Assembly: GCA_964587005.1 (NCBI GenBank)
Contig: CAZPJW010000003.1
Coordinates: 6,392 to 70,391, forward strand
Source of the DNA: Candidatus Woesearchaeota archaeon
GTDB lineage: Archaea; Nanobdellota; Nanobdellia; SCGC-AAA011-G17; PNOQ01
Direction: 5' to 3'
Length of the DNA stretch: 64,000 nt
The notes under the pieces were generated by a model that made no database searches, had not been told where the DNA came from, and saw only the letters and a program-made list of their open reading frames with translations. Within the stretch, counting starts at the first letter, position 1, and each line of letters begins with the position of its first letter. This document shows positions 2,190 to 61,343 of the stretch, in pieces. Both the position numbers and the translations under genes were made by a program.

Positions 2190-5037
<2,848 letters not shown>

Positions 5038-5038
5038 A

Positions 5039-5578
5039 ATGAAAGAGAAAGTTTATTTTTTTGATTGGATGGAGACATTGGCCAATGTTCGTGCTAGTGA
5101 GAAAGAAATACTTACTCAGAGAGAGCATGAATTGCTGTTGGTGACCCCTTTTGAAGAAGTTGAGTTTTCTGAAGGAAGGGCGGAAATTGTTCATGATTTC
5201 CTTACCGGAGTTGAACATTTCTTATATTCTGATAGTGTTGATGTTATGTCAAGATTGAAGGAAGAAGGATATCGTTTGGGGATTGTTTCTGATATGTATG
5301 ATTTAACAGAGGAGATTGTTCGAAGAGAGTTTAGTGATTTTATTGGAATGTTTGATGTTTTTGTGACATCTGTGGGGGCAGGATTTGCTAAGCCATCTCC
5401 AAATATATATTTATCCGCAATTAATCAGTTGAATGAAAAAACAGGCATCTATACTCTTCCTGGACAGATTACTATGGTGGGAGATAGTGAGAGAAGAGAT
5501 ATTGATCCAGCTTCTAGACTGGGTATGCAAGCAAGATTAATTGACAGATCTTATCAAGGTTTGGAGGAAGTTTTTTAG
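5039..5578 (+). CDS. HAD-superfamily hydrolase (subfamily IA-like, degenerate motif I)
   Basis: Motif I FFDWMETL has the nucleophile Asp but the second Asp is replaced; motif II IVSD, Lys in FAKPSP, motif IV VGDSERRD. Confidence 0.5.
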   Translation: MKEKVYFFDWMETLANVRASEKEILTQREHELLLVTPFEEVEFSEGRAEIVHDFLTGVEHFLYSDSVDVMSRLKEEGYRLGIVSDMYDLTEEIVRREFSDFIGMFDVFVTSVGAGFAKPSPNIYLSAINQLNEKTGIYTLPGQITMVGDSERRDIDPASRLGMQARLIDRSYQGLEEVF

Positions 5579-5582
5579 ACAA

Positions 5583-6170
5583 ATGATAAAAGCAATTGTT
5601 TTTGATTTGGCCGGGGTGTTGATGGATATTGGAGGCATATCTGACAGTTTTAATAAACTGTGTAATAGATATGGTAAAGATGATGTTGTTCCTTGGCGAG
5701 ATTTTAGAGAGGAATGGAATAAAGTTAAATTGGATGAAATTAGTTGTGAAGATTTTTATAAGGTGATTGCTAGAAAACTAGAAATTGATTTTGAAGAAGT
5801 AAAACGGACATTCTCAAATATAGAGGTAGATAAAGAAATGAAAGAGCTTGTTTTAAAATTATTAGAAAGTTATAAAATAGGTATTCTTTCAAACACAACG
5901 AAAGATATATTAAGAGAATTGTTGAAAATTTGGGATTTAAATGCAGTTGCGAAAGTGACTACTTCGTGTTATGATAAAGTTAAGAAACCAGATACAGAAG
6001 CTATTGATTTAATCATTAAGAAATTGAATGTTGAAAAAGATGAAATTATTTTTATCGATGATAAGCTTGAAACTATTGAAACATATTCGGAATATGGAAT
6101 TAAATGTATAAAATTTGATAGTAAAGAACAGTTAGTTGAGGATTTAAAAAAATTTGGAGTTGAAGTATGA
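5583..6170 (+). CDS. HAD-superfamily hydrolase (dehalogenase/phosphatase-like, DxA motif I)
   Basis: [13 protein letters not shown] motif I, ILSNTT motif II, KKPD lysine, FIDDK motif IV; the ORF track start at 5541 is probably an N-terminal over-extension. Confidence 0.55.
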
Positions 6171-8554
6171 ATAATAATAACAAAGTTCAGCAAAGGCTAA
6201 TTGAAGAAGAAATGAAAGAAGCGTACATAGATTATGCTATGTCTGTTATTGTTTCTAGAGCTTTGCCGAATGTTTGTGATGGTCTTAAACCAGTTCATAG
6301 AAGAATTTTGTATGCTATGAAAGATATGGGCATGCTTCATAATAAACCGTTTAAAAAATGTGCAAGAATTGTAGGAGAAGTTTTAGGTAAATATCACCCA
6401 CATGGAGATACTGCTGTTTATGATGCATTAGTTAGAATGGCTCAAGATTTTAGTTTGAGATATCCTTTGATTAATGGCCACGGAAATTTTGGAAGTGTGG
6501 ATGGAGATAGGGCGGCTGCAATGAGGTATACTGAAGCAAGATTGCAAAAGATGGCTTCTGATTTATTGGAAGATTTAGATAAGAATACTGTTGAATATGT
6601 TGATAATTTTGATGCTTCTTTGAAAGAGCCAGTTGTTTTGCCATCGAAATTACCGAATTTGTTAATTAATGGTTCTTCAGGAATTGCTGTTGGAATGGCA
6701 ACGAATATTCCACCACATAATGTTTCAGAGGCATTAGATGCTTGTATTGCTTTTGTTGATAACCAAGATATTTCTATTGATGAATTGATGAAATATGTAA
6801 AAGGTCCCGATTTTCCTACTGGCGGAATTATTTTGGGTAGTAACGGAATAATTAAAGCGTATAAAACTGGAAGAGGTTCTATTAGAATTAGGTCTGTTGT
6901 TGATATTGAAGATAATAAATTAATTATTTCGGAGATTCCTTATCAAGTTAATAAAACTACTTTAATAGAAGGTATTGTTAATTTAGTTAAAGAAAAAAGA
7001 GTTGAAGGCATTTCGGATATTAGAGATGAATCAGATAGAGATGGAATGAGAGTTGTTATTATTTTAAAGAAGAATGTTAATCCCGAATTAATTTTGAACC
7101 AATTATATAGGCTTTCTCAGTTGGAAGTTAGTTATGGTATGAATATGTTGGCTTTAGTTAATAATCAACCAAAAACTTTGTCTTTGTTTGATATGGTTAA
7201 ACATTTTGTTTTTCATAGAAAAGAGATTGTTGTTAGAAGAACGAAATTTGATTTAGATAAAGCTGAGAAAAGAGCACATATTTTAGAGGGTTTGAAAATT
7301 GCTTTGGAAAATATTGACGAAGTTGTTAAAACTATTAAATCTAGTAAAGATGTTGAAGGTGCTAGGAGATTATTAATAAGTAAATTTTCTTTATCTGAGA
7401 AGCAAAGCCAGGCTATTCTAGATATGAGATTACATAGATTGACTTCTTTGGAAACTAATAAGTTGAAGAATGAATATAATGATCTAATTAAGTTAATTAA
7501 GAATTTGAAAGAAATTTTACAAGATGAAAATAAAGTTTTTAAGATTATTAAAGATGAATTTTTGGAAATGAAGAAGAAATATGGCGACGATAGAAAAACG
7601 GAATTGCTTGATGTTGAAGAAGAAATTGAAGATGAAGATTTAATTAAAAAGGAGAATGTTGTTGTTACGGTTACTCATGATGGTTATGTGAATAGGTTGC
7701 CAGTTGAAACTTATCGTAGTCAGGGGCGTGGTGGAAAAGGTATTCGTGCTACCGGAACTAAAGAAGAGGATTTCGTTGAACATATTTTTACAACTAGTAC
7801 TCATGATTATTTGTTATTTTTTAGTAATTTGGGAAGAGTTTATTGGAGTAAAGCTTATTCAATTCCTTCTGGATCTAGATATGCAAAGGGAATGAATTTG
7901 ATTAATTTGCTTAGGTTAAGAGAGGATGAAAGAATTAAGACCATTATTCCAGTTTCTAGTTTTGAAGAAGGTTTTTTGAATATCATAACTAAGAAAGGTT
8001 TGATTAAGAAAACAGCTTTGAAAGCATACTCCAAACCAAGAAAAGGCGGAATTGTTGCGGTTAATTTGAAGCAAGGAGATAATTTAGTTGAAGTTATATT
8101 AACTAAAGATGGGGAGGAATTAGTTGTAGCTACTGCTAATGGTCGCGCTATTAGATTTAAAGATGAATTAATTAGGCCGGTTGGTAGGAATTCCCAAGGT
8201 GTTCGAGCTATAAAATTGAGGAAGGATAAAGTTATTGGCGTTGCTATTGCTAAAAATAGTTTACTTTCTGTTACCGAAAATGGTTATGGTAAAAGAACCG
8301 ATATTAAGGAATATAGTGTTATTGGTCGTGGTGGTTTGGGAGTTATTAATATAAAAACTTCTGATCGTAATGGAAAAGTTATTGGTATTAAATCTGTTAA
8401 ATCTGAAGATGATTTGATGTTGGTTACAAAGAAAGGTACGTTGATTCGTGTTTCGGCTAAGAATATTTCTAAGATTGGTCGTAATACGCAAGGTGTTAGA
8501 ATTATGAAGCTAAAAGAAGGCGATAAAGTTATTTCAGTTGCTAGAGTTTTTTAG
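6167..8554 (+). CDS. gyrA: DNA gyrase subunit A
   Basis: [28 protein letters not shown] and the active-site region [10 protein letters not shown]; C-terminal β-pinwheel repeats; start overlaps the preceding stop (ATGA). Confidence 0.95.
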
Positions 8555-9114: not shown

Positions 9115-9387
9115 TCAATTATTAAGAGACCTATACCACTCAGAGAATTCTTTTCTTTTCTTTTGGGAGAGCATTGTTGAAATTGGTTTGTATGAGAAGA
9201 CTATCCCAACCGCCCCGAAAAAAATAGTTATTGCTGCGGGCAAGTAGCCTATTTCTTGTTGTTCTGTTGGGTTTTTTATTTTTGGAGCAGAAAGTAATGT
9301 ATTCTCTAATTTATTAGCTTCTGTAAATCTGGGCGAACTAAGTGTTAAAGTTGAAATTAGAAGAGTGTTGTATAGTTTATTTTTCAC
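9115..9387 (-). CDS. Hypothetical small membrane/secreted protein
   Basis: N-terminal hydrophobic segment and a central TM helix ([14 protein letters not shown]); no recognisable domain. Confidence 0.3.
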
Positions 9388-10616
9388 ATTAACTCACCGT
9401 AACCAATTAATCTCCAACGTGCACCAAGCATTCTTGCGATTGTTATTCTTTCGTTTTTGAATGCGCAAACTGGTTTTTTTAGTTTGAGTTTTATAGAATC
9501 TTTTTTTAGTTCTGTTACTGTTCCTACTGTTGCCGTTGAATTTACATTAAGCATTAAGATTTCGTTCATTTTTATTGGTTCAACTACTAATTCATCTTTT
9601 GAACCTACAACTCTTTCTAGTAATGTTTGTTTTAAATTAAGTTCTTCTAAAGTTTCTGGCATTTTTCCGTGTAAACCAGCTACATTTCCAACTAATGAAT
9701 CTGATTTTACTAATGTTGGGTCTAGTTTTGTTTGGATTCCTGCAGAACCTCCAGGAGTTATTTCTGAAACTTCTTGGTTTCCGGTAATTAGAGATTCAAT
9801 TTGAGTTTGTATTGGTTCCCAGATTATTTTATTTTGTTTTTCTGTTTTTATTCCAGGTTTTATTTCAATTAAATCTCCTTTTTTTAATATTCCCGTTTTC
9901 ATTGCTCCACCTAAAACTCCACCCTTTAGACCTTTTATTACGGTTCCAGGTTTGTTGATGTCAAATGATCTTGCTACTAAGAATAAAGGATCTTTTTTTT
10001 GGTCTCTTTCTGGAGTCGGGAATGTTTCTTGTATTGTTTTGATTAGGACGTCAATGTTTATTTTGTGTTGAGCAGAAATAGGTATTATTGGCGAATCTTC
10101 ATAATTTGTTCCTTTTAGAAATTCTTTAATTTGTTTGTAGTTTTCTAAAATTTTTTCTTTATCTACTAAATCTATTTTATTTTGTATAATTATTACATTT
10201 TTTACTTCAGCTATTTCTAATGCCATTAAGTGTTCTTTTGTTTGTGGTTGAGGGCATTCTTCTGTTGCCGAAACCATTAATAATGCTGCATCCATGATTG
10301 CTGCTCCAGAAAGCATTGTTGCCATTAGTGTTTCGTGGCCAGGAGCATCTATGAATGAGACTTTTCTTAGTGGGATAAATTTTGGTTTTTTTTCTACTGT
10401 ATAACATTCTGGATCTTTTTTATCTGGATCTTTATAGAATGTAGTGTCTGCGTATCCTAATTTTATTGTGATTCCTCTTTTTAATTCTTCAGAATGAACG
10501 TCTGTCCATTTTCCGGACAAAGCTTGTGTTAAGGTGGTTTTTCCGTGGTCAACATGTCCAACTAATCCTATACTAATTTCTGGTTGTAATTCTTTGGTTT
10601 CATTTTTCTTAGGCAT
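9384..10616 (-). CDS. eif2g: Translation initiation factor 2 subunit gamma (aIF2γ)
   Basis: G-domain [21 protein letters not shown]; the zinc-knuckle region and domains II/III typical of aIF2γ. Confidence 0.9.
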
Positions 10617-11244: not shown

Positions 11245-11700
11245 TTACTTTGGTTCCTCTTTAGGAGCTTCTTTTACTTCTTCAGTAGGTTTTTCTTCTG
11301 ATTTTGTTTCTTCTGCTGGAGCTTCGGGTTCTTTTTCTAAGCCTAAAACTTTTGGAAGAGTATCTTTACCGTATTTTTCAACCTTTAAATTTATTTGAGA
11401 AATTGATTCATCAATAGTATTTCCATGCATTGTTTTTCTTTGTTGCATTCCTTTGACTTTGTTTTTTACTCCAATGCCAGAAACGACTAAGGGTCTTTTT
11501 CTTCCAATTCCAGGAATATCGGATCTCATTGGAAAACCTTGTTTATCAGATCCTCCTGTTATTGTGAATTCATAACCTTTGAAACCAAATTCGTCACCAG
11601 AGATTTTTTCTCCGATTTTTTTATTTAAGAATATATCTGATTCTACTTCTTTCTTATATGATTTTTTTGCTTTTACATCGTTTATTGTTAGTTTGAACAT
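11245..11700 (-). CDS. rps6e: 30S ribosomal protein S6e with an EPK-rich C-terminal tail
   Basis: ITGGSDKQGFPMR and GMQQRKTMHGNTI conserved S6e motifs; the C-terminal EKEPEAPAEETKSEEKPTEEVKEAPKEEPK tail is low complexity. Confidence 0.8.
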   Translation of the reverse strand: MFKLTINDVKAKKSYKKEVESDIFLNKKIGEKISGDEFGFKGYEFTITGGSDKQGFPMRSDIPGIGRKRPLVVSGIGVKNKVKGMQQRKTMHGNTIDESISQINLKVEKYGKDTLPKVLGLEKEPEAPAEETKSEEKPTEEVKEAPKEEPK

Positions 11701-11703
11701 TTT

Positions 11704-13443
11704 TTACATACCCCACGTTGGATTTTCATTTCTTTTGATTTCGGCGATTTCTTTTAACAATTGGGTCTCTGATTCATTTAAATACTTTTTCATTAGTTTT
11801 TTAAGCTTTTTGAAGTCTCCTTGTGGAATATCTGAGTATAAAATATCATTTTCCTTGATTTGTCTGCCACAAGTTATGTTTGGTAAGGAAATAGCGACTT
11901 CTTTGCCTTGTTTTGCTTCTTGCACAGTTTCTTTATTGTCTTGTATTTCTTTTAGCTCGGTTAGTTTTTTTCCTTTTGATGTCATTAAAGGAGTTCCAGC
12001 TCTTGCTGTTCCTATTAATATATCTACTCCAACTACAGCAGGATTTAACTGTCTAAAAACACATCCGGGCATAATTTTTAGTTTGAAAGGTTTTACTAGG
12101 TCTTGAAATTCTTTTTCTTCTAATGATTTTGATGTTGTGTCTAAGTGTTTTGTAACATCATCGATTATTTTATAGATTATGTTGTTTGTAATTATTTTTA
12201 CTTCTTTAGATTCTTCTAAAACTTTTATGTTGAAACCAACTACTGTTTTGTTTAGTGGGTCTTCGTTTGAAGAAGCTTCTGCAATGTCGTTTTTTGTTAT
12301 ATTTCCGATTGCTGCCTTTTTTATTTTTATGTTTTTATCTTTTAATAATGAGATTAATGCTTCTAAAGAACCAAGAGTGTCTGCTTTTGCTATAATTCCT
12401 TCGTTGTCTGTGTCTATTGTGACTTCATCTATTTCTTGTTGAAGTTCTTTTATTATTTCTTTTTCATTTTCTTTATTTGAAACTCTTAATGGCATTCCGG
12501 GAATTGCTTCTTCTAAATTTGGTGAAGAAATTTTTATTCCTGCTGATGCATGTACTTCTTTTTTTTCTGTTAGTTTCGATTTTTCATATTTGAATAAACA
12601 TTTTACTTTTGTTTTTATTGGTTCATTTAAAGTTCCAATTACAATATTATCATTTTGTTTTATCTTTCCATCGTAAATTACTACATCTAGTGTTTTTCCA
12701 ATTCCTTTTTCTTCTGTTACTTCTAGTATTGTTCCTTTTGCAGGTTTTTCTAGATCTGTTTCTAAAGAAGATTCTAAGAATTTTTGAGCTAGCCCGGAAA
12801 TTACCATAAGCAATTCTGGTAAGCCATCTTTTGTTTTTGCAGAACAAGGGATTATTGCTACTTGTTTTGTGTAATCTTGTAATCTGTCAAATCTTTCTGA
12901 TTGTAGGCCGTGTTCGTGTAGAGTTTGAACTATTTTGTATAATTTTGTTTCGATATCAGTTGTTACATAATCTTGTTGATCTTTGATATTTTGCAAGATT
13001 GGTTTTTTTGGATCTGAAATAAATCCTCCAGATCTGTCTATTTTATTTGCTGCTACTACGAATGGAGTTTTTGAGTTTTTTAGAATTTCAATAGCTTCTA
13101 GTGTTTGAGGTTTTGCACCTTCGTTCATATCAATAACTAGGATTGCGATGTCTGCTATATTTCCTCCCCTTTTTCTTAGGGTTGTGAAAGCTTCGTGCCC
13201 AGGGGAGTCTATGAATAAAATTCCTGGAATTGTTAAGTTAATATTTTTTAATAAATCTCCACAGGTTTGTTTTATTTTATTTAGTTCTATTGAATGTGCT
13301 GTGATGTTTTGAGTTATTCCTCCGGCTTCTTTGTCTGCCACAGATGTCTCTCTAATTGAGTCTAGAATACTTGTTTTTCCGTGGTCTACGTGTGCTAATA
13401 ATACACATATTGGTTGTCTTAGCATTTTCTTAATATTAGGCAA
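11704..13443 (-). CDS. infB: Translation initiation factor IF-2 (aIF5B)
   Basis: AHVDHGKTSILD, DSPGHEAF, NKID G-motifs followed by β-barrel domains; 579 aa. Confidence 0.9.
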   Translation of the reverse strand: MPNIKKMLRQPICVLLAHVDHGKTSILDSIRETSVADKEAGGITQNITAHSIELNKIKQTCGDLLKNINLTIPGILFIDSPGHEAFTTLRKRGGNIADIAILVIDMNEGAKPQTLEAIEILKNSKTPFVVAANKIDRSGGFISDPKKPILQNIKDQQDYVTTDIETKLYKIVQTLHEHGLQSERFDRLQDYTKQVAIIPCSAKTKDGLPELLMVISGLAQKFLESSLETDLEKPAKGTILEVTEEKGIGKTLDVVIYDGKIKQNDNIVIGTLNEPIKTKVKCLFKYEKSKLTEKKEVHASAGIKISSPNLEEAIPGMPLRVSNKENEKEIIKELQQEIDEVTIDTDNEGIIAKADTLGSLEALISLLKDKNIKIKKAAIGNITKNDIAEASSNEDPLNKTVVGFNIKVLEESKEVKIITNNIIYKIIDDVTKHLDTTSKSLEEKEFQDLVKPFKLKIMPGCVFRQLNPAVVGVDILIGTARAGTPLMTSKGKKLTELKEIQDNKETVQEAKQGKEVAISLPNITCGRQIKENDILYSDIPQGDFKKLKKLMKKYLNESETQLLKEIAEIKRNENPTWGM

Positions 13444-14306: not shown

Positions 14307-14567
14307 TTATTTACCCTTTGAAGTAATTTTTCTAGCTTCAATTTCAGTTTCTCTTAGCATTAATAGGTCACCAGGTTTTATTGGGCCCTTAACATTTCTT
14401 CTAAGAACTTTATTTTGATCTCTACCTTCAAGAACTTTACATCTAACTTGGGTTATTTCGCCTTTCATTCCAGTTCTTCCGACTATTTCTTCAATTCTTG
14501 CTGGAACTGCTGGCTTGAATAAGCTAGTGTCTTCCTTTTTTGTTGTTTTTTTCTTCTCAGGAGCCAT
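14307..14567 (-). CDS. rps28e: 30S ribosomal protein S28e
   Basis: [37 protein letters not shown] matches S28e. Confidence 0.85.
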
Positions 14568-14569
14568 TT

Positions 14570-14863
14570 TTATTTCTTGCCTTCTTGGATAACTGCAACT
14601 GCTGAAGTTGATACTTGTAGCCCTGCTGCTGCCCCTAGCTCTTCTCTTGAGTCTACTTCAACGAAAGGAATTTTCTTTTCTTCGCATAAAGGTTTTAGGT
14701 GCATGATAACTTCTGCAGGAGAAACATCTTTTGCAACGACAATTAGCTTCGCTACACCTCTTTCAGCGGCTTTTGTTACTTCATTTGTGCCTTTTTTTAT
14801 CTTTCCAGATTTTTTTGCAAGTTCAACAGCTTCATATGCTTGATCTTGATTTATTTCTACCAT
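14570..14863 (-). CDS. rpl7ae: 50S ribosomal protein L7Ae (K-turn binding protein)
   Basis: [26 protein letters not shown]...EELGAAAG matches the L7Ae/L30e family. Confidence 0.9.
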
Positions 14864-14969: not shown

Positions 14970-15305
14970 TTAGTTTCTTCTGTAGTCGATTCCAGGTGTT
15001 CCCAAATCTCTAAGTTTTAGGTCTTTTCTGTTTCTGTTATCGTAAGTTAATCCAGGGTTATCTTCTTCTACTTGGTCTTTATAATCTTCTACGGTTAAAT
15101 TAGTGCCTTCAATTTCTCTTCTTGCTACTCTTCTTAATTCGGTCCAAGAAACGATAACATCATCTAGAGTTACTAGCTTTGCTTCAGCTAATTCTTGCTT
15201 GTCTTCTTCTCTAGCCTGTTTTTCTGCCTTTACCTTTTTTATGTAATCACAGCCAGTACTTGCTAGTACAAGAGGTACTAATAATGTTAATAGTGTTTTT
15301 CTCAT
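14970..15305 (-). CDS. Putative lipoprotein (signal peptide plus ASTGC lipobox)
   Basis: MRKTLLTLLVPLVLASTGC: a hydrophobic h-region followed by a lipobox-like STG-C; the rest is charged and coiled-coil. Confidence 0.4.
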   Translation of the reverse strand: MRKTLLTLLVPLVLASTGCDYIKKVKAEKQAREEDKQELAEAKLVTLDDVIVSWTELRRVARREIEGTNLTVEDYKDQVEEDNPGLTYDNRNRKDLKLRDLGTPGIDYRRN

Positions 15306-18983: not shown

Positions 18984-19397
18984 TTATTCTCCGATTATTT
19001 TTATTAAAACTCTCTTTTTTCTTTGACCATCAAATTCTGCGTAATAAATTTGTTCCCAAGGTCCTAAGTCTAATGAGTTATTTGTTATTGCCATTGTAAC
19101 TTGGTGCCCCATTAAAGTTCTTTTTAGGTGAGCGTCTGCGTTGTCTTCTCCGGTTTGATGGTGTTTGTAATCTAAACCATAAGGAGCAAGTTTTTCTAGC
19201 CATTCTTGGAAATCTTGTATTAATCCAGATTCTGCATCGTTTACATAGACTGCCGCAGTTATATGCATTGGGTTAATTAAAACTAAGCCTTCTTTTATTT
19301 TTGAGTTTTTTATTACTTTTTCTACTTCATGAGTTATATTTAGAAAGTCTTGTCTTTTTTCAGTTTTGAAATATAAATATTCTGTGTGAGATTTCAT
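18984..19397 (-). CDS. YjbQ/UPF0047 family protein
   Basis: 137 aa; [21 protein letters not shown]...[19 protein letters not shown] matches the YjbQ fold signature. Confidence 0.6.
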
Positions 19398-20344
19398 TTG
19401 TAAGCTTTTCTGATGGGTGTTATGATCTTTATTAAATATTCTGATGTTGAATTTTTTAGGTCTAGTGGATGTATTTTTTTAGATGTGAATCCTTTTTCTA
19501 GTTCTTCGTATGTTTTGAATTTTAAATTTCCTCCAAATTTTTTGTCTCTTTTTATTTCGAAGGTTTTTGTTCTGGGGAAAATTATTAATTTAATTATTTC
19601 TAGAACTGGACTGTTTTTTTCTCCAGAGATACAATGTGTTTTGTTTATTTTTTTCTTTATTGATTCATTGGTGTCTCTTATTGAGATAAATGATTCTGCT
19701 TCCGAGGATGACATTTTTGAACCAGATCCTTTTAGGGAGTTAATTAAAGGAGTGTGAATGAATAATGGGGTTTTATAGTCTATTTTTGAAAAGATTTCGG
19801 AACCCATCATATGAATTTTTCTTTGTTCTATTCCAGATTGAACTGCATCTAGTTTTAAGTGTTTTATATCAACTATTTGCATAAATGGGTAGATAACTTG
19901 TGAGACTTTTGCGTTTTCTATGTCTCTTGCCACTTGTTGCATACTTCTTAATGCTCTATTGATTGTTACTGATGAAGATAGCTTTAGAACGTCTTCTTGA
20001 TATTCTTTTTTAGTTTGAAATGAACTTCCCACTACGAATTCTGCTTTACTTAGTCCTGCTGCTTTGAAACCTTTTTTCCAGTGTTTTACTTGTTCGTTAA
20101 TGAATTTCCAATCTCCTTTTTGATTTAGGAATGCGTGATAATCTGCAAATAGAATTACGACTTGGAATCCTGCTTCTTGCAAATCTAGTAATTTAGTTAT
20201 TGTTACTAGGTGTCCCAGGTGGATTTCTCCAGAAGGTTCGTAACCACAATAAACTCTTGGTTTTTTCTTTTTTAGAAGAGTTTTTAGTTTTTCTTCTGAG
20301 ATTATTTCTTGAGTATTTCTTTTTATTAAATCTAATTTGTTCAT
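19394..20344 (-). CDS. tyrS: Tyrosyl-tRNA synthetase (archaeal short type)
   Basis: HIGH-type motif ([10 protein letters not shown]) and KMSKS-type motif (KMSSSE); 316 aa. Confidence 0.9.
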
Positions 20345-20369: not shown

Positions 20370-20762
20370 TTAAGCTTTTTCTTTTAGAACTAAATACGCT
20401 ATGATTAAAACCCCAATTACATTAAATGAGTCTGCTATATTAAAAATTGGCCAAACTTGTAAATCTATGAAATCTCTAACATAACCTAATGAAACTCGGT
20501 CTATTAAATTTCCAATTGTTCCTCCGAATAAAAAAGCTAAAGGAATTCTTAGATTTTTTTCTTTTTTTGCTAAGAAAAATATAAAAATTGCTACTAGGAA
20601 TGAGATTATTGTTAATAGAAATGTTTGATTTTGTAGTATTGAGAAGGCTGCTCCGGTGTTTGTTGTGTAGTTTATGAATAAAAAATGCTTATTTGTGAAT
20701 AAGTCTTTTGTTAGTTGATCTAGGAAGATTATTAATATTGAAATTAGGAGGAATTTTTTCAT
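20370..20762 (-). CDS. lspA: Lipoprotein signal peptidase (signal peptidase II, LspA-like)
   Basis: Conserved LspA blocks NTGAAFS, GGTIGNLIDR, GYVRDF and IFNIADS (catalytic Asp positions) across 4 TM segments. Confidence 0.75.
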   Translation of the reverse strand: MKKFLLISILIIFLDQLTKDLFTNKHFLFINYTTNTGAAFSILQNQTFLLTIISFLVAIFIFFLAKKEKNLRIPLAFLFGGTIGNLIDRVSLGYVRDFIDLQVWPIFNIADSFNVIGVLIIAYLVLKEKA

Positions 20763-20815
20763 AGTTTTATTGATTTAGAAATCTTTATAAATTTTTATAA
20801 TATGCCTTTTATACA

Positions 20816-21916
20816 GTGGAAACTTGTAAAGAACCACCAAAGAGACTTTCTATTATTGTTAAGCCGACTCATGATTGCAATATGGGCTGTGAGTATTGTT
20901 ACATTGATCCCGAAGCAGAACAAGGAGTTATGGATGAAGGAACATTGGAAAATATGGTTAATAAATCGATGTCTACCCATGATTCTGTTCATTTTATCTG
21001 GCATGGGGGGGAACCCTTGTTGTTACCCCTGTCTTTTTATAGAAAGGCTGTTGAATTTCAAAAGCAATTTGAAGGCAAAGGTGTCAGCAATGGATTTCAG
21101 ACTAACGGAACACTAGTAACTAAGGAAGTTCTGGATTTTTGCGAGGAGAATCAATTTAGTATGGGATTTAGTTTAGATGGTCCAAAACATATTAATGATG
21201 AAACTAGGCATTTTAAAGACGGAAGCAGTAGTTATCTAAAAACATTAAGAGCGATTAAGCGAGCACAAAAGAGAAAAGTGGGAGGGGGCGCTATTGTTGT
21301 TGTGAATAAAACAAATGTAGATAGGCTCCCGGAGATATATGAATTTGCTCAGAGGCAAGGAATAAACTTGAAATTGAATCCGTTGATTAAGGCAGGTTCC
21401 GCTCTTGATAGTATGGAAGATTTGGGTATTGGTCCCCTAGAATATGGTCGAGCTTTAGTAGATTTATTTGATAGGTGGTTTTATGATGATTCTAGTGTTA
21501 GAGTGGATCCCTTTGAAGATTTGATGGGCAATTTGTTAACTGGGAAACCTTGGGGATGTAATTATTCTGAATCTTGCCAAAATTCCTTTATATCTGTTGG
21601 TCCACAAGGAGACATATACCCTTGTGGGAGGTTTGATGGAGTTCCTGGATTTCATTTAGGAAATGTAAATGAGGGAGATCTTGCTGATGTTTTAACTTCG
21701 GAGAAAAGGTTACATCTGAGAGGAAGGGCCGAACGGATTGAGCCCTGTCAGCCGTGCGAACATAAGGATATATGCAATTCTGGCTGTATGCATAATGCTT
21801 ACATGAGGAGAGGCAGAGTCGATGATAGAGATTATTATTGCGCAAGCTTTAAATTGTTGTTTGATCATATTAATGAAGCGATGGATGCTGAGTTGGCTAA
21901 CGCGGAGGTGAAATGA
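20816..21916 (+). CDS. Radical SAM enzyme with a C-terminal SPASM domain (peptide-maturase type)
   Basis: CNMGCEYC CxxxCxxC cluster, GGEPLL, and a C-terminal auxiliary-cluster Cys array (CNYSESC...CGRF...CQPCEHKDICNSGC); more GC-rich than the flanks; stop overlaps the start of the first downstream small ORF (ATGA). Confidence 0.8.
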   Translation: METCKEPPKRLSIIVKPTHDCNMGCEYCYIDPEAEQGVMDEGTLENMVNKSMSTHDSVHFIWHGGEPLLLPLSFYRKAVEFQKQFEGKGVSNGFQTNGTLVTKEVLDFCEENQFSMGFSLDGPKHINDETRHFKDGSSSYLKTLRAIKRAQKRKVGGGAIVVVNKTNVDRLPEIYEFAQRQGINLKLNPLIKAGSALDSMEDLGIGPLEYGRALVDLFDRWFYDDSSVRVDPFEDLMGNLLTGKPWGCNYSESCQNSFISVGPQGDIYPCGRFDGVPGFHLGNVNEGDLADVLTSEKRLHLRGRAERIEPCQPCEHKDICNSGCMHNAYMRRGRVDDRDYYCASFKLLFDHINEAMDAELANAEVK

Positions 21917-22182
21917 TGGCTGAATTAGAGGGAATTGTTATGGTAAACGGAAGAAAAATTGATATAAGAAAGGTTAGTAATAAAAGAATGAGATATGTTT
22001 TAGGGGGATTTTCTGAATCCACCTCAGACGGATTTATGTTTCGAAAGAGAAATCATACAGATTACACTGACCATTCTGAATATGAAATAGGTATAGACTG
22101 TGATCCTGCGGACCATTGGGGGCATACGGACCATTCTAACTATAGTGACCATAAAGATAAACATACAGACAATCATAAGTAA
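21913..22182 (+). CDS. Putative RiPP precursor peptide A (leader plus HTD/YTD/YSD repeat core)
   Basis: 89 aa; leader-like NGRKIDIRKVSNKRMRYVLG...DGFMFRKRNHTD shared with the next two ORFs; core rich in H/Y-T/S-D/E triplets; start codon overlaps the maturase stop. Confidence 0.5.
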   Translation: MMAELEGIVMVNGRKIDIRKVSNKRMRYVLGGFSESTSDGFMFRKRNHTDYTDHSEYEIGIDCDPADHWGHTDHSNYSDHKDKHTDNHK

Positions 22183-22204
22183 TACTTTGTGAGGTGAAAT
22201 TGAA

Positions 22205-22435
22205 ATGGAAAGATTAGAAGAAAAAGTTATTGAAATACAAGGCAAAAAAATTGACCTAAATAAATTAGGAAATAAAAGAATGAGATATGTTTTAGGAAGA
22301 CTTGATTATTCTGACGGGTTTTTGTTTTGGAAAAGAAATCATACTGACCATCGGGAACACACGGATGAAGATGGAGGAATTGATTGTAGTCATATTAATT
22401 GGACCGATCATACAGATTATTCCGAGAATTGTTAG
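22205..22435 (+). CDS. Putative RiPP precursor peptide B
   Basis: 76 aa; QGKKIDLNKLGNKRMRYVLG...DGFLFWKRNHTDHREHTDEDGGIDCSHINWTDHTDYSENC; paralog of peptide A. Confidence 0.5.
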   Translation: MERLEEKVIEIQGKKIDLNKLGNKRMRYVLGRLDYSDGFLFWKRNHTDHREHTDEDGGIDCSHINWTDHTDYSENC

Positions 22436-22516
22436 GAATGGATAATTTATGGTTGTTGGGGTCAAAGTTTGAAAGGCATAAAGATTTGTATGGTGGTTCA
22501 AATAGGTAATTAAGAA

Positions 22517-22960
22517 ATGTCAAAGATAATAAGGTTTAATGGAAGGAGAATTGATTTGGGAAGGATCACAAACCTAAAATTAGTTGAAGTGTTTAAAGAA
22601 AGAGTTCATGATGGAAATAGATTTTTGTTTTTTCATAAAGATAATTATACGGAAGAACATACCGATCGTAGTAAAAGAAATTATGATGATTATTCTGATC
22701 ATTCTGAATACGGAGATCATCACGATCATAAAGATGGACACAGAGATTATGACAAATATTATGATCGTCATAATGATCGGGGCGAGGGGCATACTGATAA
22801 ATTTGGTAAATTTCATTTTAATAGGGATGACCATACTGACCACGGAGGAGTTCCCAGATTCCATAGGGATTCGGCGGGAGGAATAGGGAGAAGCCATGAA
22901 GATCATGGTGGTCATAAGAAAAATAAACATACTGATGATCATACTGATAAGACCAAGTGA
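22517..22960 (+). CDS. Putative RiPP precursor peptide C (extended His/Asp/Tyr-rich core)
   Basis: 147 aa; the NGRRIDLGRITN leader is homologous to A and B; the core has many HTD/YSD/HSE/YDD triplets and is His-rich. Confidence 0.5.
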   Translation: MSKIIRFNGRRIDLGRITNLKLVEVFKERVHDGNRFLFFHKDNYTEEHTDRSKRNYDDYSDHSEYGDHHDHKDGHRDYDKYYDRHNDRGEGHTDKFGKFHFNRDDHTDHGGVPRFHRDSAGGIGRSHEDHGGHKKNKHTDDHTDKTK

Positions 22961-30947: not shown

Positions 30948-31463
30948 TTAAGAAATCTCTATTCCAACCTTACCAGCTATTCTTGGCTTTGTTTTTGTTA
31001 ATGCTTTTTTTGCAAATTCAACCCCGTCTTCAGGAACACATACGGTTAGTATTGTTTTTCCAGGTTTTAGTTGAGCTGCTGTTCCCATTGCTTTTCCAAA
31101 TGAGTGCTTCATTCCAGATTGCATTCTATCTGCTCCAGCACCGGTAAGCATCTTATTTTCTCTAAGAACATGGTGCGGAAATTGATTTATTGTGAATTTG
31201 TATCCTTTTGCTCCGAATCTAGCTTGTAATTGTCTATTTACTAGAGTTCTGCAAGATTCTAAAGAATTATGTCTAAGTTGGAATTTTTCTTTTGAAATCA
31301 ATTTTACTTTTTTTGGGAATTCTTTTTTTAAATCTCCCATGTTGTATTTAACTATCTTTCTTGCTGGCACTACTTTTATGAAACCTTTTTTCTTATATTT
31401 AGAGTTTCTTGTGTATGCTCTTGTTGTTTTCTTGTATGCATTTCCTTTTCTTAGTTGTGCCAT
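30948..31463 (-). CDS. rpl10e: 50S ribosomal protein L10e (uL16)
   Basis: MAQLRKGNAYKK...RFGAKGYKF...KMLTGAGADRMQ matches L10e/L16. Confidence 0.85.
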   Translation of the reverse strand: MAQLRKGNAYKKTTRAYTRNSKYKKKGFIKVVPARKIVKYNMGDLKKEFPKKVKLISKEKFQLRHNSLESCRTLVNRQLQARFGAKGYKFTINQFPHHVLRENKMLTGAGADRMQSGMKHSFGKAMGTAAQLKPGKTILTVCVPEDGVEFAKKALTKTKPRIAGKVGIEIS

Positions 31464-31465
31464 TT

Positions 31466-31723
31466 TTATTCAATTTTAACTTTTGTTCCTATTGCTTGTC
31501 CAGGAAGACCTTTTTCAAATTTTACTCTTACAGCGCCTTTATTGCCGTGTTCTTTTGTAATTGTACCTTTTATTTCTTTTTTTGTTGGTGTTACCCAAGT
31601 TACTGTTTTTTTTAAGAGTTCTTTAGCTTTTTCTTTAGTTTCTATTTCTTTTACTTTAATGATCATCTGATTGGGATGTTGCGTTTTGTGGGATCCCCTG
31701 TAATTTATAATTGTACCTTCCAT
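31466..31723 (-). CDS. rpl35ae: 50S ribosomal protein L35Ae (eL33)
   Basis: 85 aa; YRGSHKTQHPNQ...HGNKGAVRVKFEKGLPGQAIG pattern typical of L35Ae. Confidence 0.75.
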   Translation of the reverse strand: MEGTIINYRGSHKTQHPNQMIIKVKEIETKEKAKELLKKTVTWVTPTKKEIKGTITKEHGNKGAVRVKFEKGLPGQAIGTKVKIE

Positions 31724-38416: not shown

Positions 38417-38611
38417 TTAAAAGTTTAGTTCGTCTAGGTCTATGTCGTCTGCTAGTTCTGTTTCTACATCATCTAGATCTTTTATGATATCTTCTTCTAT
38501 GTTGTCATCTATGGTTTCTTCATTATCGGCAATATTCTCAGTTGTTGCAAAAAATGTACAACTTGAAATCAATATGGTTGCCAATACTAAAGCGACTATT
38601 GCTGTTTTCAT
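38417..38611 (-). CDS. Small highly acidic secreted lipoprotein-like peptide
   Basis: Signal peptide with LISSC lipobox, then about 40 aa that are over 50% Asp/Glu. Confidence 0.35.
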   Translation of the reverse strand: MKTAIVALVLATILISSCTFFATTENIADNEETIDDNIEEDIIKDLDDVETELADDIDLDELNF

Positions 38612-42640: not shown

Positions 42641-43291
42641 TTAAGAATTTAGTTCTTGTTCTATTAGTTGTTCAAAAGCACCAAATGGTTGTGCACCCGA
42701 TAAAGGAATTCCGTTTATGAAAAATGCTGGTGTTCCTCTTACTCCTGCTGCTGAACCATCTCGTAGGTCTTTTTGTACTTCGTCGTAGTTTTTTCCAGAG
42801 TCAAGACAATCATTAAATTCAGTTGTGTCTAATCCTATTTGAGAGGCGTATTGTTTAAAGGACTCAACACCCTGAGATACTCCTGACTCGAAAAGTTTGT
42901 CGTGCATTTCATAGTATTTCCCTTGGTCTCCTGCGCACTCTGCTGCTTCTGCTGCTTTTTGTGCGTTTCGATGACTACTTAATGGGAAATCTCTATAAGC
43001 GAATTTGACCTTTCCTGTGTCAATATATTTTTCTTCTATTAATTTTAGTGTTTGTGAATAGAATCTTGCACAGTAAGGACATTCGTAATCAGAAAATTCT
43101 ACGATTGTTACTGGAGCATTTGAATCTCCTTTTATAGTATCATCATCTAAAGATACTTGTACTCTTTGTACTACTTGTTCTTCTTGTATTGTATTTCCAG
43201 TTTGACTTGTTTCATTTGAATTTATAAAAAAGGTTGCTACTAACAATATTGCTAAAACTCCTACAGTTATCTTTAATCCTTTGTTTTTCAT
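42641..43291 (-). CDS. DsbA-like thiol:disulfide oxidoreductase (secreted/anchored)
   Basis: N-terminal TM/signal, then a thioredoxin fold with the CPYC active site (FSDYECPYCARF). Confidence 0.7.
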   Translation of the reverse strand: MKNKGLKITVGVLAILLVATFFINSNETSQTGNTIQEEQVVQRVQVSLDDDTIKGDSNAPVTIVEFSDYECPYCARFYSQTLKLIEEKYIDTGKVKFAYRDFPLSSHRNAQKAAEAAECAGDQGKYYEMHDKLFESGVSQGVESFKQYASQIGLDTTEFNDCLDSGKNYDEVQKDLRDGSAAGVRGTPAFFINGIPLSGAQPFGAFEQLIEQELNS

Positions 43292-46874: not shown

Positions 46875-47789
46875 TTAACAGCTTCCTGATGCTGTCCCTT
46901 GTGTGTCATCTAGTACTTCATCACAAATTCCTGGTGCGTTGTTAAATCCAGAACAGATTGCTGTTTTTATTCCGTCTTGTGTTCTTGCAGGACTTATTTT
47001 AACACCGTTTAGGAAAAATGTTGGTGATCCTCCAACTCCATTTTCATCTGCGTAGACAACATTTTCACTTAATAGATCTGAACCTTCGTTGTTGAAACAG
47101 TCTAATATTATTGTTGCGTCTATTCCAACTTGTTCTGCACATGTTCCCCAGATTGTGTCTAGATTTCTATAATCTTCTGCCACACATAGCAAATAGTCGA
47201 AATATTTTTCTGGGTAATTTTTCTCTACACATAACTGTCTTATATTTCCATCAACTTCAGGTTGTCCGTGTAGACTACTAAATGTTCCGTCTCCATTATC
47301 ATTTGCAATAAATCTTAGATTGAACTCAATATCATCTCCGAACAATTCTACCACCGGAAATGTGATTTCTTCTGCTTGTGTACCATATGGACATTGAGAC
47401 ATTACATATAGATCCAGAACTGGTTTGTCTGTTTTTGGTACGTTTGCTGGTGCTGGAGGTTCGGGTTTATCTTCTTGCTCAACTTCTTTTAGTTCTACTA
47501 ATGGTTGGACAAGATATTCTCCAGATTTTGTTATGTACAAGAATTGCGGTGCGCCATTTAGAGTTACGGGTACTTTATATAGGCCACCTTCAGTAATAAC
47601 GTCTCCAGTTATTTCTGCTTGCGTTCCTTCTTGCAATATTTCCATGTTAATAAATTCAATGGCATCCTTTGCTACCATATTGCCAGTTTTGAATGATAGG
47701 CCACAACCAGAGGTTGCAGTAACAAAGACAAATATGATTAGAATGGCAAAAGTACTAATTTTCCATTTGTTTAATTTTTTTTCTGTCAA
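46875..47789 (-). CDS. Secreted lipoprotein-like protein with a C-terminal thioredoxin-like (CPYG) domain
   Basis: Signal plus TSGC lipobox; the C-terminal LDLYVMSQCPYGTQAE resembles DsbA/thioredoxin-like folds. Confidence 0.45.
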   Translation of the reverse strand: MTEKKLNKWKISTFAILIIFVFVTATSGCGLSFKTGNMVAKDAIEFINMEILQEGTQAEITGDVITEGGLYKVPVTLNGAPQFLYITKSGEYLVQPLVELKEVEQEDKPEPPAPANVPKTDKPVLDLYVMSQCPYGTQAEEITFPVVELFGDDIEFNLRFIANDNGDGTFSSLHGQPEVDGNIRQLCVEKNYPEKYFDYLLCVAEDYRNLDTIWGTCAEQVGIDATIILDCFNNEGSDLLSENVVYADENGVGGSPTFFLNGVKISPARTQDGIKTAICSGFNNAPGICDEVLDDTQGTASGSC

Positions 47790-47835: not shown

Positions 47836-48567
47836 TTAAATCTTTCGTATATTTTTCAAAACTATTATTGAGATTATAAATAACGGAATTGAAATCCATT
47901 GTCCATAAGTTAGTCCTGAAAAAATTACTTGGTCTTTGAAAAATTCTATTATAAATCTAAATAGAGAATAGAGTGCTATGAACATCCAGAAGATAACTCC
48001 GCGCTTTATATTTTTAACTTTGTAGAAGTTTAAGAGAATTATGAAAATGAAAAAATTCTTTATTGATTCGTATATTTGTGAAGGATGTCTTAGTCCTTCT
48101 AGATTATCATAATATATCCCCCAGGGAACGTTTGTTATTCTTCCAGGAAATTCTTGGTTAAGGAAGTTTCCTATTCTTCCTAGACTTAATCCTAATGCTA
48201 AAGGAATAACGATTATGTCTGCTATGTCGTAGAAATGTATTTTATATTTTTTACAGAAGAAATATGTTCCTATTATTGCTCCGAGTAAACCCCCATGAAA
48301 AGCCATTCCTCCTTGCCAGATGTAAAATACCCTTAGTAGATTATCTTGGTATAAATGGAAGTTGAGTATTACTGCTAAAAGTCTTGCTCCAATTATGCTG
48401 CTTGGAATTAAATAAACAAAATAATCATAGATTTGTTGTTTTGTTATATTTCTCTTTTTTGCAAGTTTTATTGAGATTGGGATTGCTATTAAGAAACCTA
48501 GGGCGAATATTATCCCATACCAATGTATCTGTAATGTTCCTATTGTGAATGCTATTGGATCAATCAT
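47836..48567 (-). CDS. lgt: Prolipoprotein diacylglyceryl transferase (Lgt-like)
   Basis: Lgt signature blocks: IHWYGIIFALGF, IGARL, WQGGMAFHGGLLGAI, GRIGNFLNQE, VPWG; multi-TM. Confidence 0.8.
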   Translation of the reverse strand: MIDPIAFTIGTLQIHWYGIIFALGFLIAIPISIKLAKKRNITKQQIYDYFVYLIPSSIIGARLLAVILNFHLYQDNLLRVFYIWQGGMAFHGGLLGAIIGTYFFCKKYKIHFYDIADIIVIPLALGLSLGRIGNFLNQEFPGRITNVPWGIYYDNLEGLRHPSQIYESIKNFFIFIILLNFYKVKNIKRGVIFWMFIALYSLFRFIIEFFKDQVIFSGLTYGQWISIPLFIISIIVLKNIRKI

Positions 48568-48637: not shown

Positions 48638-49084
48638 TTGATGATATGTGTAATTGCAATGGTTGTTTTTGGAGTAATGGCAATATTTTCTGCGAGTCAT
48701 AGGCCGTTAGCGAAAGAAGCATTTGATTGTGTTTTTAGAAGAATTACTTTGAGGAGTTGTCAATCTGGTTTGGATGTTAAATTGAAAGCTAAATTGGTTG
48801 GTAGTTTAATGAGGAAGAATTCTAAGTTTGCCAGGCCCGTGTATAAACATTTTGAAATGGTTTCTTGGATATTTGTCATTATTTTCTTTGTAAGTTTAGT
48901 TTATTCGGGAGTATCTGTTTATAATTTAGCTGTGCATGATAATTGTGCTGGCCCAGATGCAGATCCAGAAGAATGTATTTTTGTTCCTAATAATGAAGCA
49001 GTAAGTTGTGGCGATCCTTTATGTGAATCTGGAGAATGTGAAGTTTGTGGAGAAGTATGTGGTTGTCATGAGTGTGAAGGTTAA
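48638..49084 (+). CDS. Membrane protein with a Cys-rich C-terminal domain
   Basis: Two TM helices, then CAGPDADPEECIF...SCGDPLCESGECEVCGEVCGCHECEG. Confidence 0.3.
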   Translation: MMICVIAMVVFGVMAIFSASHRPLAKEAFDCVFRRITLRSCQSGLDVKLKAKLVGSLMRKNSKFARPVYKHFEMVSWIFVIIFFVSLVYSGVSVYNLAVHDNCAGPDADPEECIFVPNNEAVSCGDPLCESGECEVCGEVCGCHECEG

Positions 49085-59001: not shown

Positions 59002-59496
59002 ATGTTAACTTTAAAGCAAAATAAGGACTTTGAAGAAAAATTGGGAATAAAGACAGAATTAGTTAGAATTATTGATGTTCCTTTGGATAAATTAAGAAAT
59101 GAGATTCAAAAAGAGAAAGGAAAAGTAATTATTCAAGGAGGTGATGAAAAAACAAATAGGGCAGTAGTAGAGAATAAGAAAGTTGACATTTTACTAAGTC
59201 CGGAAGTGAATAAGAAGAAAGATCATTTACATTATAGAAAATCAGGGTTAAATCAAGTTTTGTGTAAATTGGCTAGAGAAAATAAAGTTGCTATTGGTTT
59301 TGATTTTTCTTTATTGTTAAATTCTAAAGAAAGAAGTAAAATTCTGGGAAGAATGATGTTTAATTATAAATTATGTAAAAAATATAAAGTAAAAATGGTT
59401 TTTTCTTGCTTTTCTAAAGATAAATTTGAATTAAGAAGTGAAGATTCTATGAAAGTTTTTGAAAGAATTTTGGAAAAATACGCGAAAGATTTATAA
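59002..59496 (+). CDS. rnp3: RNase P protein component 3 (Rpp30-like), shortened
   Basis: SGLNQVLCKLARENKVAIGFDFSLLL...LCKKYKVKMVFSCFSKDKFELRSEDSM matches Rpp30 conserved blocks; position in the exosome/RNase P superoperon. Confidence 0.55.
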   Translation: MLTLKQNKDFEEKLGIKTELVRIIDVPLDKLRNEIQKEKGKVIIQGGDEKTNRAVVENKKVDILLSPEVNKKKDHLHYRKSGLNQVLCKLARENKVAIGFDFSLLLNSKERSKILGRMMFNYKLCKKYKVKMVFSCFSKDKFELRSEDSMKVFERILEKYAKDL

Positions 59497-60623: not shown

Positions 60624-61343
60624 ATGCAACAAGAATCTGTTCAACATCAAATGATGGGATATGACCGTGCGAGTACTATGTTTAGTCCCGACGGTAGGTT
60701 ATTACAAGTAGAATATGCAAAAAAAACTGTTAAGCAAGGAACTCCGGTGTTAGGAGTAGTTTGTAAAGATGGAGTTGTTTTAGTAGCCGATAAGAGGGTT
60801 ATTGATAAATTAATGGTTGTCGATAGCGTTGAAAAAGTTTTTCAAATAGATGAGCACATTGCTGCAGCTGCATCAGGAATTATGAGTGATGCAAGAATTT
60901 TAATTGAAAAAGCTCAAGTAATGGCACAACAACATAGAGTTACTTATGATGAGGCAATGGAACCTGCTTCTTTGGTAAAAGAAATTTCAAATTTAAAGCA
61001 AGCATACACACAATATGGTGGTGCTAGACCCTTTGGTGTTTCTTTATTGATTGCAGGATGTAATGATGAACCTAGATTGTTTTTAACCGATCCTACTGGA
61101 ATTCAATGGGAGTATAAAGCAACTGCTATTGGAGAATATGAAGATGAATTGAAAGCAATTTTAGCTAAAACATACAAAGAGAATATTAGTGTTGAAGAAG
61201 GTGTAAAACTAGGATTGAATGCTATAAAGTCTGTTTTGGGAAAAGATTTCAATTTGGATAGATTGGACGGTGCGTATATAAAAATGAGTGATAAGAAATT
61301 TAAGAGGTTAAATAAAGATCACTTGAAAAAAATAATAAAATGA
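60624..61343 (+). CDS. psmA: Proteasome subunit alpha
   Basis: GYDRASTMFSPDGRLLQVEYA α-subunit N-terminal signature; 239 aa. Confidence 0.9.
   Translation: MQQESVQHQMMGYDRASTMFSPDGRLLQVEYAKKTVKQGTPVLGVVCKDGVVLVADKRVIDKLMVVDSVEKVFQIDEHIAAAASGIMSDARILIEKAQVMAQQHRVTYDEAMEPASLVKEISNLKQAYTQYGGARPFGVSLLIAGCNDEPRLFLTDPTGIQWEYKATAIGEYEDELKAILAKTYKENISVEEGVKLGLNAIKSVLGKDFNLDRLDGAYIKMSDKKFKRLNKDHLKKIIK

Follow-up and report, generated by a model that had tools for sequence, protein, structure and literature searches.

LspA and Lgt homologues in a Woesearchaeota-type archaeon: a candidate route to lipoprotein maturation

Can an archaeon mature its surface lipoproteins with the enzymes that bacteria use? 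The question arises from a 64,000-nucleotide (nt) stretch of contig CAZPJW010000003.1 (hereafter the window, within which the coordinates and strands of lspA and its neighbors are given), where a first-pass annotation recognized a homologue of lipoprotein signal peptidase (LspA, signal peptidase II) and a homologue of prolipoprotein diacylglyceryl transferase (Lgt). In three specialist papers, no Lgt or Lsp homologues are known in archaea, or Lgt is described as “absent from archaea” (Nat Commun 2025, PMC12462473; JBC 2026, PMC13631571; mBio 2026, PMC13251419), and the archaeal lipoprotein signal peptidase is still unidentified (PMC12462473). The remark in the annotation that such enzymes are not a generally described archaeal trait was therefore, if anything, an understatement. 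Here, we assign the window protein to the LspA/Peptidase A8 family based on its profile match, its fold, and both catalytic aspartates, and we show that its host is a Woesearchaeota-type DPANN archaeon. Most probably, the protein would act as a working signal peptidase II that cleaves Lgt-modified prolipoproteins.

Identity and active site of the LspA homologue

The gene and its diagnostic blocks are listed below; Pseudomonas aeruginosa LspA (PaLspA) is numbered according to the native-length chain 9emz, and the two catalytic residues were assigned by alignment to 9emz/5dir.

20370..20762, minus strand: lspA, signal peptidase II/Peptidase A8 homologue; ATG start, 130 amino acids (aa), four transmembrane (TM) helices, N- and C-termini predicted to be cytoplasmic
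20640..20660, minus strand: NTGAAFS block at residues 35-41, with N35 and G37 as the counterparts of PaLspA N54 and G56
20496..20513, minus strand: GNLIDR block at residues 84-89, with N85 and R89 as the counterparts of PaLspA N112 and R116
Residues 93-98 of the window LspA: GYVRDF block, which contains Asp97
20472..20474, minus strand: codon of Asp97, the equivalent of catalytic Asp124 of PaLspA
Residues 107-111 of the window LspA: FNIAD block, which contains Asp111
20430..20432, minus strand: codon of Asp111, the equivalent of catalytic Asp143 of PaLspA

The first-pass annotation had described a four-TM protein of 130 aa with these four motif blocks and both catalytic Asp positions, and each of these elements is present, the aspartates also on careful alignment. 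A hidden Markov model (HMM) search matched the protein to PF01252 (Peptidase_A8) with 100.1 bits (E=1.6e-28; Pfam cutoff 25), and LspA residues 7-126 covered model positions 1-141 of 142, that is, essentially the full model. About 20 LspA models matched in an NCBIfam scan. Among LspAs with solved structures, the sequence aligned to those of Staphylococcus aureus (6ryo, 1.7e-15) and P. aeruginosa (5dir/9emz, ~3e-11). The PF01252 match and the motif blocks together are far beyond chance.

AlphaFold2, supplied with 30 homologues, predicted four helices (residues 2-22, 47-67, 69-92, and 109-126) and two short strands (30-35 and 95-100), with a mean pLDDT of 83.9 and a pTM of 0.78. When this model was compared with the PDB using Foldseek, the matches were LspA chains only (5dir, 6ryo, and 6ryp; TMq 0.74-0.83, probability 1.00), and the next match had E>4. 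Lysine and arginine residues are concentrated in three places, namely, MKK at the N-terminus, KKEKNLR in the TM2-TM3 loop, and KEKA at the C-terminus; under the positive-inside rule, an N-in/C-in topology therefore fits, which puts the Asp dyad at the outer membrane face.

Asp97 and Asp111 are invariant in an alignment of 30 members of the archaeal clade, which are 45-92% identical to the window LspA. The same alignment was used to inspect the 14 family-conserved positions, which we take to be those of Vogeley et al. 2016. Thirteen of them are invariant: D15, K19, N35, G37, G81, N85, R89, V95, D97, F107, N108, A110, and D111, equivalent to PaLspA D23, K27, N54, G56, G108, N112, R116, V122, D124, F139, N140, A142, and D143. 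The sole varying position corresponds to PaLspA A109; it is T82 in the window LspA and T, A, I, V, or S within the clade. The LspA family as a whole is characterized by 14 highly conserved residues and by an essential Asp dyad that serves an aspartyl peptidase mechanism (PMC8689077). Relative to the orthologue in another genome labeled Candidatus Woesearchaeota archaeon (81% identical), the ratio of nonsynonymous to synonymous substitution rates (dN/dS) is 0.10 (dN 0.115, dS 1.15), and lspA is therefore under purifying selection.

Lgt, Lit, and candidate lipobox proteins

The partner enzyme, which precedes LspA in the pathway, is encoded in the same window.

47836-48567, minus strand: lgt, prolipoprotein diacylglyceryl transferase homologue, 243 aa; PF01790, E=2e-73, 247 bits, model positions 1-238 of 240

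The Lgt that the first-pass annotation placed at 47836 thus matches its family profile over the full length. It also aligned to 5azb (E=2e-35), and in that alignment, the motifs FHGG, GRxGNFxNxExxG (GRIGNFLNQEFPG), and YxxxRxxxE (YSLFRFIIE) are retained. These motifs hold the equivalents of E. coli H103, R143, N146, E151, G154, Y235, R239, and E243, which we take to be the key residues from the work on 5AZB. Homologues of the window Lgt form a large clade whose named members are Woesearchaeota or Nanoarchaeota, and in three related loci, lgt adjoins archaeal rpoH, split rpoB, and rpoA'. For six pairs of LspA and Lgt clusters, the longest contigs are of equal length (262,465; 172,035; 80,626; 346,477; 178,900; and 90,457 bp); because these figures match between the two proteins, they suggest that lspA and lgt lie on the same contig in all six pairs.

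Three related Woesearchaeota loci also contain genes of the lipoprotein intramolecular transacylase (Lit) family 3-4 kb from lgt, with PF07314 scores of 48-59 bits (cutoff 24).

L081:3078-3602: Lit-family gene (PF07314)
L083:1724-2278: Lit-family gene (PF07314)
L085:2369-2908: Lit-family gene (PF07314)

With Lit, these archaea have a third family of bacterial lipoprotein-modifying enzymes. No Lit homologue was found in the 64-kb window by TBLASTN or with an HMM built from the three archaeal Lit homologues; the Lit step is optional in bacteria, too.

Two further genes lie near lgt. A 148-aa membrane protein (48638-49084, plus strand) has no Pfam match but carries the motif CVFRRxTLRxCQSG; it is a conserved divergent neighbor of lgt, 60-75% identical in loci L081, L083, and L085, and it may be functionally linked to Lgt. 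Next to it, a ThyX-like open reading frame (ORF) of 559 aa (49081-50760, minus strand) has its Thy1 domain only at residues 350-496, preceded by a long N-terminal extension. Its orthologues are 527 aa long in L081 and ~296-315 aa long in L083 and L085.

The first-pass annotation took LspA as independent evidence that this archaeon processes lipobox proteins, and lipobox proteins are indeed present. We screened ten archaeal loci with our own regular expression and a hydropathy filter, rather than with SignalP. A lipobox pattern occurred in 7 of 29 proteins with an N-terminal signal- or anchor-like segment, whereas the background rate predicted 0.33 (Poisson P ~6e-8); when a hydrophobic-context control (2.1%) is taken as the reference, the binomial P for this count is ~2e-6. 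The window contains three candidate substrates (a slash precedes the +1 cysteine).

14970..15305, minus strand: candidate substrate of 111 aa; signal peptide MRKTLLTLLVPLVLASTG/C, lipobox LASTG/C
38417..38611, minus strand: candidate substrate of 64 aa; canonical lipobox MKTAIVALVLATILISS/C, LISS/C
46875..47789, minus strand: candidate substrate, a GILT/DsbA-like thiol oxidoreductase of 304 aa, directly downstream of lgt; ...FVFVTATSG/C

In the 111-aa candidate, the cysteine is retained in three close relatives, the only homologues found; because these relatives are so close, its conservation is uninformative. Related loci provided the lipoboxes VIAG/C and IVAG/C (L002), SIVG/C and FVMG/C (L007), and LVVG/C (L081), some of them beside lspA. 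VIAG/C, IVAG/C, SIVG/C, and LVVG/C are canonical, as is LISS/C of the window, so that four to five canonical lipoboxes in related loci accompany the three window candidates. The two from L002 belong to paralogous canonical lipoproteins encoded ~4-5 kb from the 121-aa LspA of that locus. Lipoproteins have been predicted to be prevalent in DPANN (Hong et al. 2025, PMC12462473).

The GILT/DsbA-like gene is syntenic with lgt in relatives, and the lipobox cysteine occurs only in the window copy; based on these sequences, an N-terminal TM anchor and a lipobox appear to interconvert in this group of proteins. The window also encodes a second exported thiol-oxidoreductase-like protein (Thioredoxin_4/DsbA; 42641-43291, minus strand).

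Probable peptidase function, lipid, and archaeal host

The conserved active site, the co-resident Lgt, and the lipobox proteins make it quite probable that the window LspA is a working signal peptidase II; its activity and the order of steps are inferred. As a family, signal peptidase II enzymes cut lipidated prolipoproteins ahead of the +1 cysteine and are inhibited by globomycin. In the proposed mechanism, which is modeled on the bacterial one, the co-resident Lgt would first attach a lipid to the +1 cysteine of Sec-exported lipobox preproteins. LspA would then bind the lipidated signal peptide within the membrane and hydrolyze the bond just before this cysteine; its catalytic dyad would be Asp97 and Asp111, which lie where TM3 and TM4 end on the outer side. 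The product would be a lipid-anchored surface protein, and the most conjectural element is the lipid that is transferred and recognized.

Several observations weigh against this assignment. With TIGR00077, the lspA equivalog model, the window LspA scored 70.5 bits and so narrowly missed the cutoff of 73.95. The miss stems from deletions in the protein, and the cutoff is an annotation threshold, neither a structural nor a functional criterion. Of the 142 profile positions, about 21 are missing, the majority of them from the extracytoplasmic beta-cradle and from the loop that precedes TM4. The shortened loops are also the least confident regions of the AlphaFold2 model (pLDDT 60-67), which nevertheless includes the strands at 30-35 and 95-100. 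In bacterial LspA, the beta-cradle and the loop before TM4 clamp substrate and inhibitor (PMC8689077). Because these clamp elements are shortened and modeled with low confidence, the window LspA, whose core is intact, may handle its substrates in another way than the bacterial enzymes do. As for substrates, the 111-aa and 64-aa window candidates are small and have few or no detectable homologues, and the lipobox cysteine of the GILT/DsbA-like protein is not conserved in its syntenic orthologues, which have a TM anchor instead.

The lipid itself is a further difficulty. The normal donor of Lgt is phosphatidylglycerol, whereas the archaeal lipoproteins examined to date bear thioether archaeol, which AliA/AliB attach (PMC12462473). 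Archaeal membranes normally contain ether isoprenoid lipids with the opposite glycerol stereochemistry. No lipid-synthesis genes were found in the 64-kb window. Some Woesearchaeota have genes for a bacterial glycerol-3-phosphate dehydrogenase, fatty-acid synthesis, and the methylerythritol phosphate (MEP) pathway (Castelle et al. 2021). Key archaeal lipid-synthesis genes are missing even in the biosynthetically best-equipped Woesearchaeota subgroup (Huang et al. 2021), and the same authors suggested that these archaea acquire their lipids from other organisms.

The main rival explanation differs from ours only in the lipid. It states that an active LspA cleaves lipoproteins that carry thioether-linked archaeol, which Lgt would transfer from archaetidylglycerol or which an AliA-type enzyme with its gene elsewhere in the genome would attach; the window LspA would then be, at least in this lineage, the still-sought signal peptidase of archaeal lipoproteins. 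Lipoproteins of Haloferax do carry thioether archaeol, their signal peptidase is still unidentified, and AliA is distributed in DPANN “with some gaps” (PMC12462473). The trimmed beta-cradle could also reflect a different lipid moiety. On the other hand, Lgt co-occurs with LspA in the window and on other contigs, and Lgt plus LspA is therefore the simplest pairing; no AliA-like gene was recognizable in the window, in which no AliA profile or sequence search was made. Given this pairing, we consider cleavage of archaeol-modified lipoproteins unlikely.

A decaying or repurposed relic, which would retain the LspA fold without peptidase activity or serve a role unrelated to lipoproteins, is a poorer explanation still. 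It would account for a length of 130 aa, compared with 163-169 aa in characterized LspAs, and for the TIGR00077 score below the equivalog cutoff. However, a diverse clade shows no variation at the two catalytic aspartates and at almost all of the family-conserved positions, dN/dS is 0.10, Lgt co-occurs, and lipobox proteins are enriched, all of which make a relic very improbable.

The first-pass annotation took the host to be an archaeon, and archaeal-type genes lie on both sides of lspA. The window genes that occur only in archaea and eukaryotes are as follows.

330-521: S27ae
920-1105: Spt4
1095-1679: Rpo7/RpoE'
9384-10616: aIF2-gamma
11245-11700: S6e
11704-13443: aIF5B
14307-14567: S28e
14570-14863: L7Ae
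30948-31463: L10e
31466-31723: L35Ae
59002-59496: RNase P Rpp30
60624-61343: proteasome alpha
61340-62026: SBDS
62720-63427: RNase PH exosome subunit

Because genes for archaeal translation, transcription, ribosome, exosome, and proteasome components flank lspA on both sides, with hallmark genes within 6-11 kb in each direction, the host is archaeal. GC content is uniform along the window (28-37%). The immediate neighbors of lspA are listed below; the first-pass annotation had noted tyrS beside it, and the two genes are 25 nt apart on the same strand.

19394-20344, minus strand: tyrS (PF00579), 316 aa, 25 nt downstream of lspA
18984..20344, minus strand: tyrS together with a UPF0047/YjbQ gene, which overlaps tyrS by 4 nt
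20783..20791, minus strand: TATA-box-like element TTTATAAAG in a divergent intergenic region of 53 nt, located 21-29 nt before the ATG of lspA

The common direction of lspA, tyrS, and the UPF0047 gene, the 25-nt spacing of the first two, and the 4-nt overlap of the last two make a single operon probable. The TATA-like element is weak evidence for a promoter because the DNA is 68% A+T. Independent assemblies of at least four metagenomes contain the gene order radical-SAM/lspA/tyrS/UPF0047/methyltransferase, and synteny is retained in the Candidatus Woesearchaeota archaeon genome used above for dN/dS, where LspA is 81% identical and the neighbors are 55-70% identical. Elsewhere among archaea, a divergent LspA of 154 aa adjoins aIF1A and TFE, and one LspA homologue comes from a Nanoarchaeota single-cell genome.

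Bacterial DNA mis-assembled or mis-binned into an archaeal contig would be uninformative about archaea, and it might be suspected given that LspA is otherwise a bacterial hallmark and that related sequences are mostly from metagenome-assembled genomes, but we rejected contamination or a chimera as extremely improbable based on the flanking archaeal genes, the adjacent tyrS, the uniform composition, the identical arrangement in at least four independent metagenomes, the synteny (55-70% protein identity) with another genome of Woesearchaeota, the Lgt relatives that abut archaeal RNA polymerase genes, and the single-cell LspA homologue.

On the other side of lspA, a radical S-adenosylmethionine (SAM)/SPASM enzyme is encoded divergently (20816-21916, plus strand), followed by three small ORFs of 89, 76, and 147 aa (whole region 20816-22960, plus strand). 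The small ORFs have in common an N-terminal region resembling G+KIDL..NKRMRYVLG, and they have His/Asp/Thr-rich tails with HTDH repeats. Together with the SAM/SPASM gene, they look like a peptide-maturation cluster, similar to those for ribosomally synthesized and post-translationally modified peptides; the cluster is retained beside lspA in four independent assemblies. Near the start of the window, an ORF for a LAGLIDADG_2 homing endonuclease (2190-3158, plus strand; 322 aa) runs into the beginning of a gyrB of bacterial type, after which come two HAD hydrolase genes and gyrA (region 3139-8554, plus strand).

Distribution, origin, and comparison with known systems

A protein search with the window LspA returned 1,065 significant matches. 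The best 120 clusters of these are 45-99% identical to the window LspA and nearly all 127-147 aa long, and every named one is archaeal (Woesearchaeota, Nanoarchaeota, Nanoarchaeum sp., or “archaeon”). In a library of 1.84 billion proteins, which carries no taxonomy, 16,856 clusters matched at E<=1e-3, and the nearest representatives are 128-150 aa long. Among species-representative genomes, the nearest bacterial LspAs are 33-46% identical over the best-matching segment and come from Dehalobacterium, Omnitrophota, Dehalococcoidia/Chloroflexota, and other lineages.

For the phylogenetic check named in the first-pass annotation, we used a neighbor-joining tree of 108 LspAs. In this tree, 35 of 36 archaeal sequences group in one clade, sister to Chloroflexota/Dehalococcoidia; however, bootstrap values are 1-9%, and because such support is negligible, the tree permits no conclusion on monophyly, donor, or number of transfers. 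Within it, the close clade of short LspAs has a bootstrap value of ~50%. Nearly all bacteria have LspA, whereas its occurrence in archaea is patchy, and from this distribution, we infer that archaeal lspA is of bacterial origin. The large archaeal clade is most simply explained by an old transfer of lgt and lspA from bacteria. Gene transfer from bacteria to DPANN is common (Castelle et al. 2021).

In several bacterial loci, lgt immediately follows lspA; in the archaeal window, 27 kb lies between them. If both arrived in a single operon, they have moved apart since then. The adjacent arrangement was observed in 12 loci, mostly of Omnitrophota, with others from WOR-1, Planctomycetales, Clostridiales, and other bacteria.

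A literature search found no paper describing Lgt or LspA in Woesearchaeota or DPANN; they may nevertheless have been noted elsewhere. Neither enzyme is mentioned in the main text or two supplementary files of the survey of bacterial systems in DPANN by Castelle et al. 2021. Records at NCBI and JGI already label the short archaeal LspAs “signal peptidase II.” The enzymes were thus hidden in plain sight rather than unknown, and their significance is tempered both by these labels and by the frequency of transfer from bacteria to DPANN. Nevertheless, the presence of both bacterial enzymes on one contiguous archaeal stretch, intact and under purifying selection, corrects the generalization that they are absent from archaea, and the archaeal LspA clade comprises well over a hundred sequence clusters. 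The question is now an experimental one, namely, which lipid a bacterial-type Lgt/LspA pair handles in an archaeal membrane.

Some archaeal genomes have many predicted lipoproteins without AliA or AliB, and further lipidation pathways have been called for (Hong et al. 2025, PMC12462473). The set of Lgt and LspA, in some cases with Lit, is a clear candidate for such a pathway. More broadly, we tentatively propose, as a possibility that falls short of being probable, that a large DPANN branch, namely, the Woesearchaeales and their relatives, relies for the maturation of its surface lipoproteins on the complete bacterial toolkit (Lgt and LspA, joined in some members by Lit) rather than on AliA/AliB, the system of other archaea. 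If true, this proposal would explain the lipoprotein-rich archaeal genomes that have neither AliA nor AliB. It would also mean either that bacterial Lgt and LspA work on archaeal ether lipids of opposite stereochemistry or that these host-dependent archaea contain bacterial-type ester phospholipids, which they would make themselves or scavenge. Both possibilities have a direct bearing on the lipid divide that separates the two domains.

Of the known systems with which the window enzymes can be compared, AliA and AliB of Haloferax volcanii (arCOG02177/02178) have a purpose in common with LspA, since they help an archaeon to mature its lipobox proteins (PMC12462473). Their sequences show no relationship to the window enzymes, and they carry out the lipidation step, in which they attach archaeol, rather than cleavage. 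No archaeal signal peptidase II is known to partner AliA/AliB; the window contains bacterial-type enzymes instead.

The closest counterparts are the other short LspAs of Woesearchaeota and Nanoarchaeota, a clade of more than 100 clusters at 90% identity; the window LspA is a member of this clade, has its invariant residues, and shows no essential difference from it. Other archaeal LspAs are either longer (154-178 aa in four loci) or, in L002, shorter (121 aa). In the latter, from Woesearchaeota (L002:5944-6309, plus strand), the NTGAAFS block follows TM1 almost immediately.

Compared with bacterial LspA (6RYO/6RYP and 5DIR/6FMS), the window LspA has the same four-TM fold (TMq 0.74-0.83), the same predicted topology, and 31-33% identity in structural alignment, and both contain the Asp dyad, the D/K pair, N-x-G, G-x-x-x-N-x-x-x-R, and F-N-x-A-D. 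The differences are in the periphery and in the setting. The window LspA is 130 aa long, whereas the enzymes of P. aeruginosa and S. aureus are 169 and 163 aa long, respectively. The first part of its beta-cradle, which lies between TM1 and the NTGAAFS strand, is shorter by ~11 residues, and the loop before TM4, where bacterial LspA has a one-turn helix, is shorter by 4-5 residues; a few residues ahead of TM2 are also lost, and both termini are shorter. Its host is an archaeon, in which the membrane lipid context is probably different from that of bacterial hosts. The kind of enzyme is thus known (LspA/Peptidase A8) and mechanistically ordinary, and the unexpected part is its taxonomic setting.

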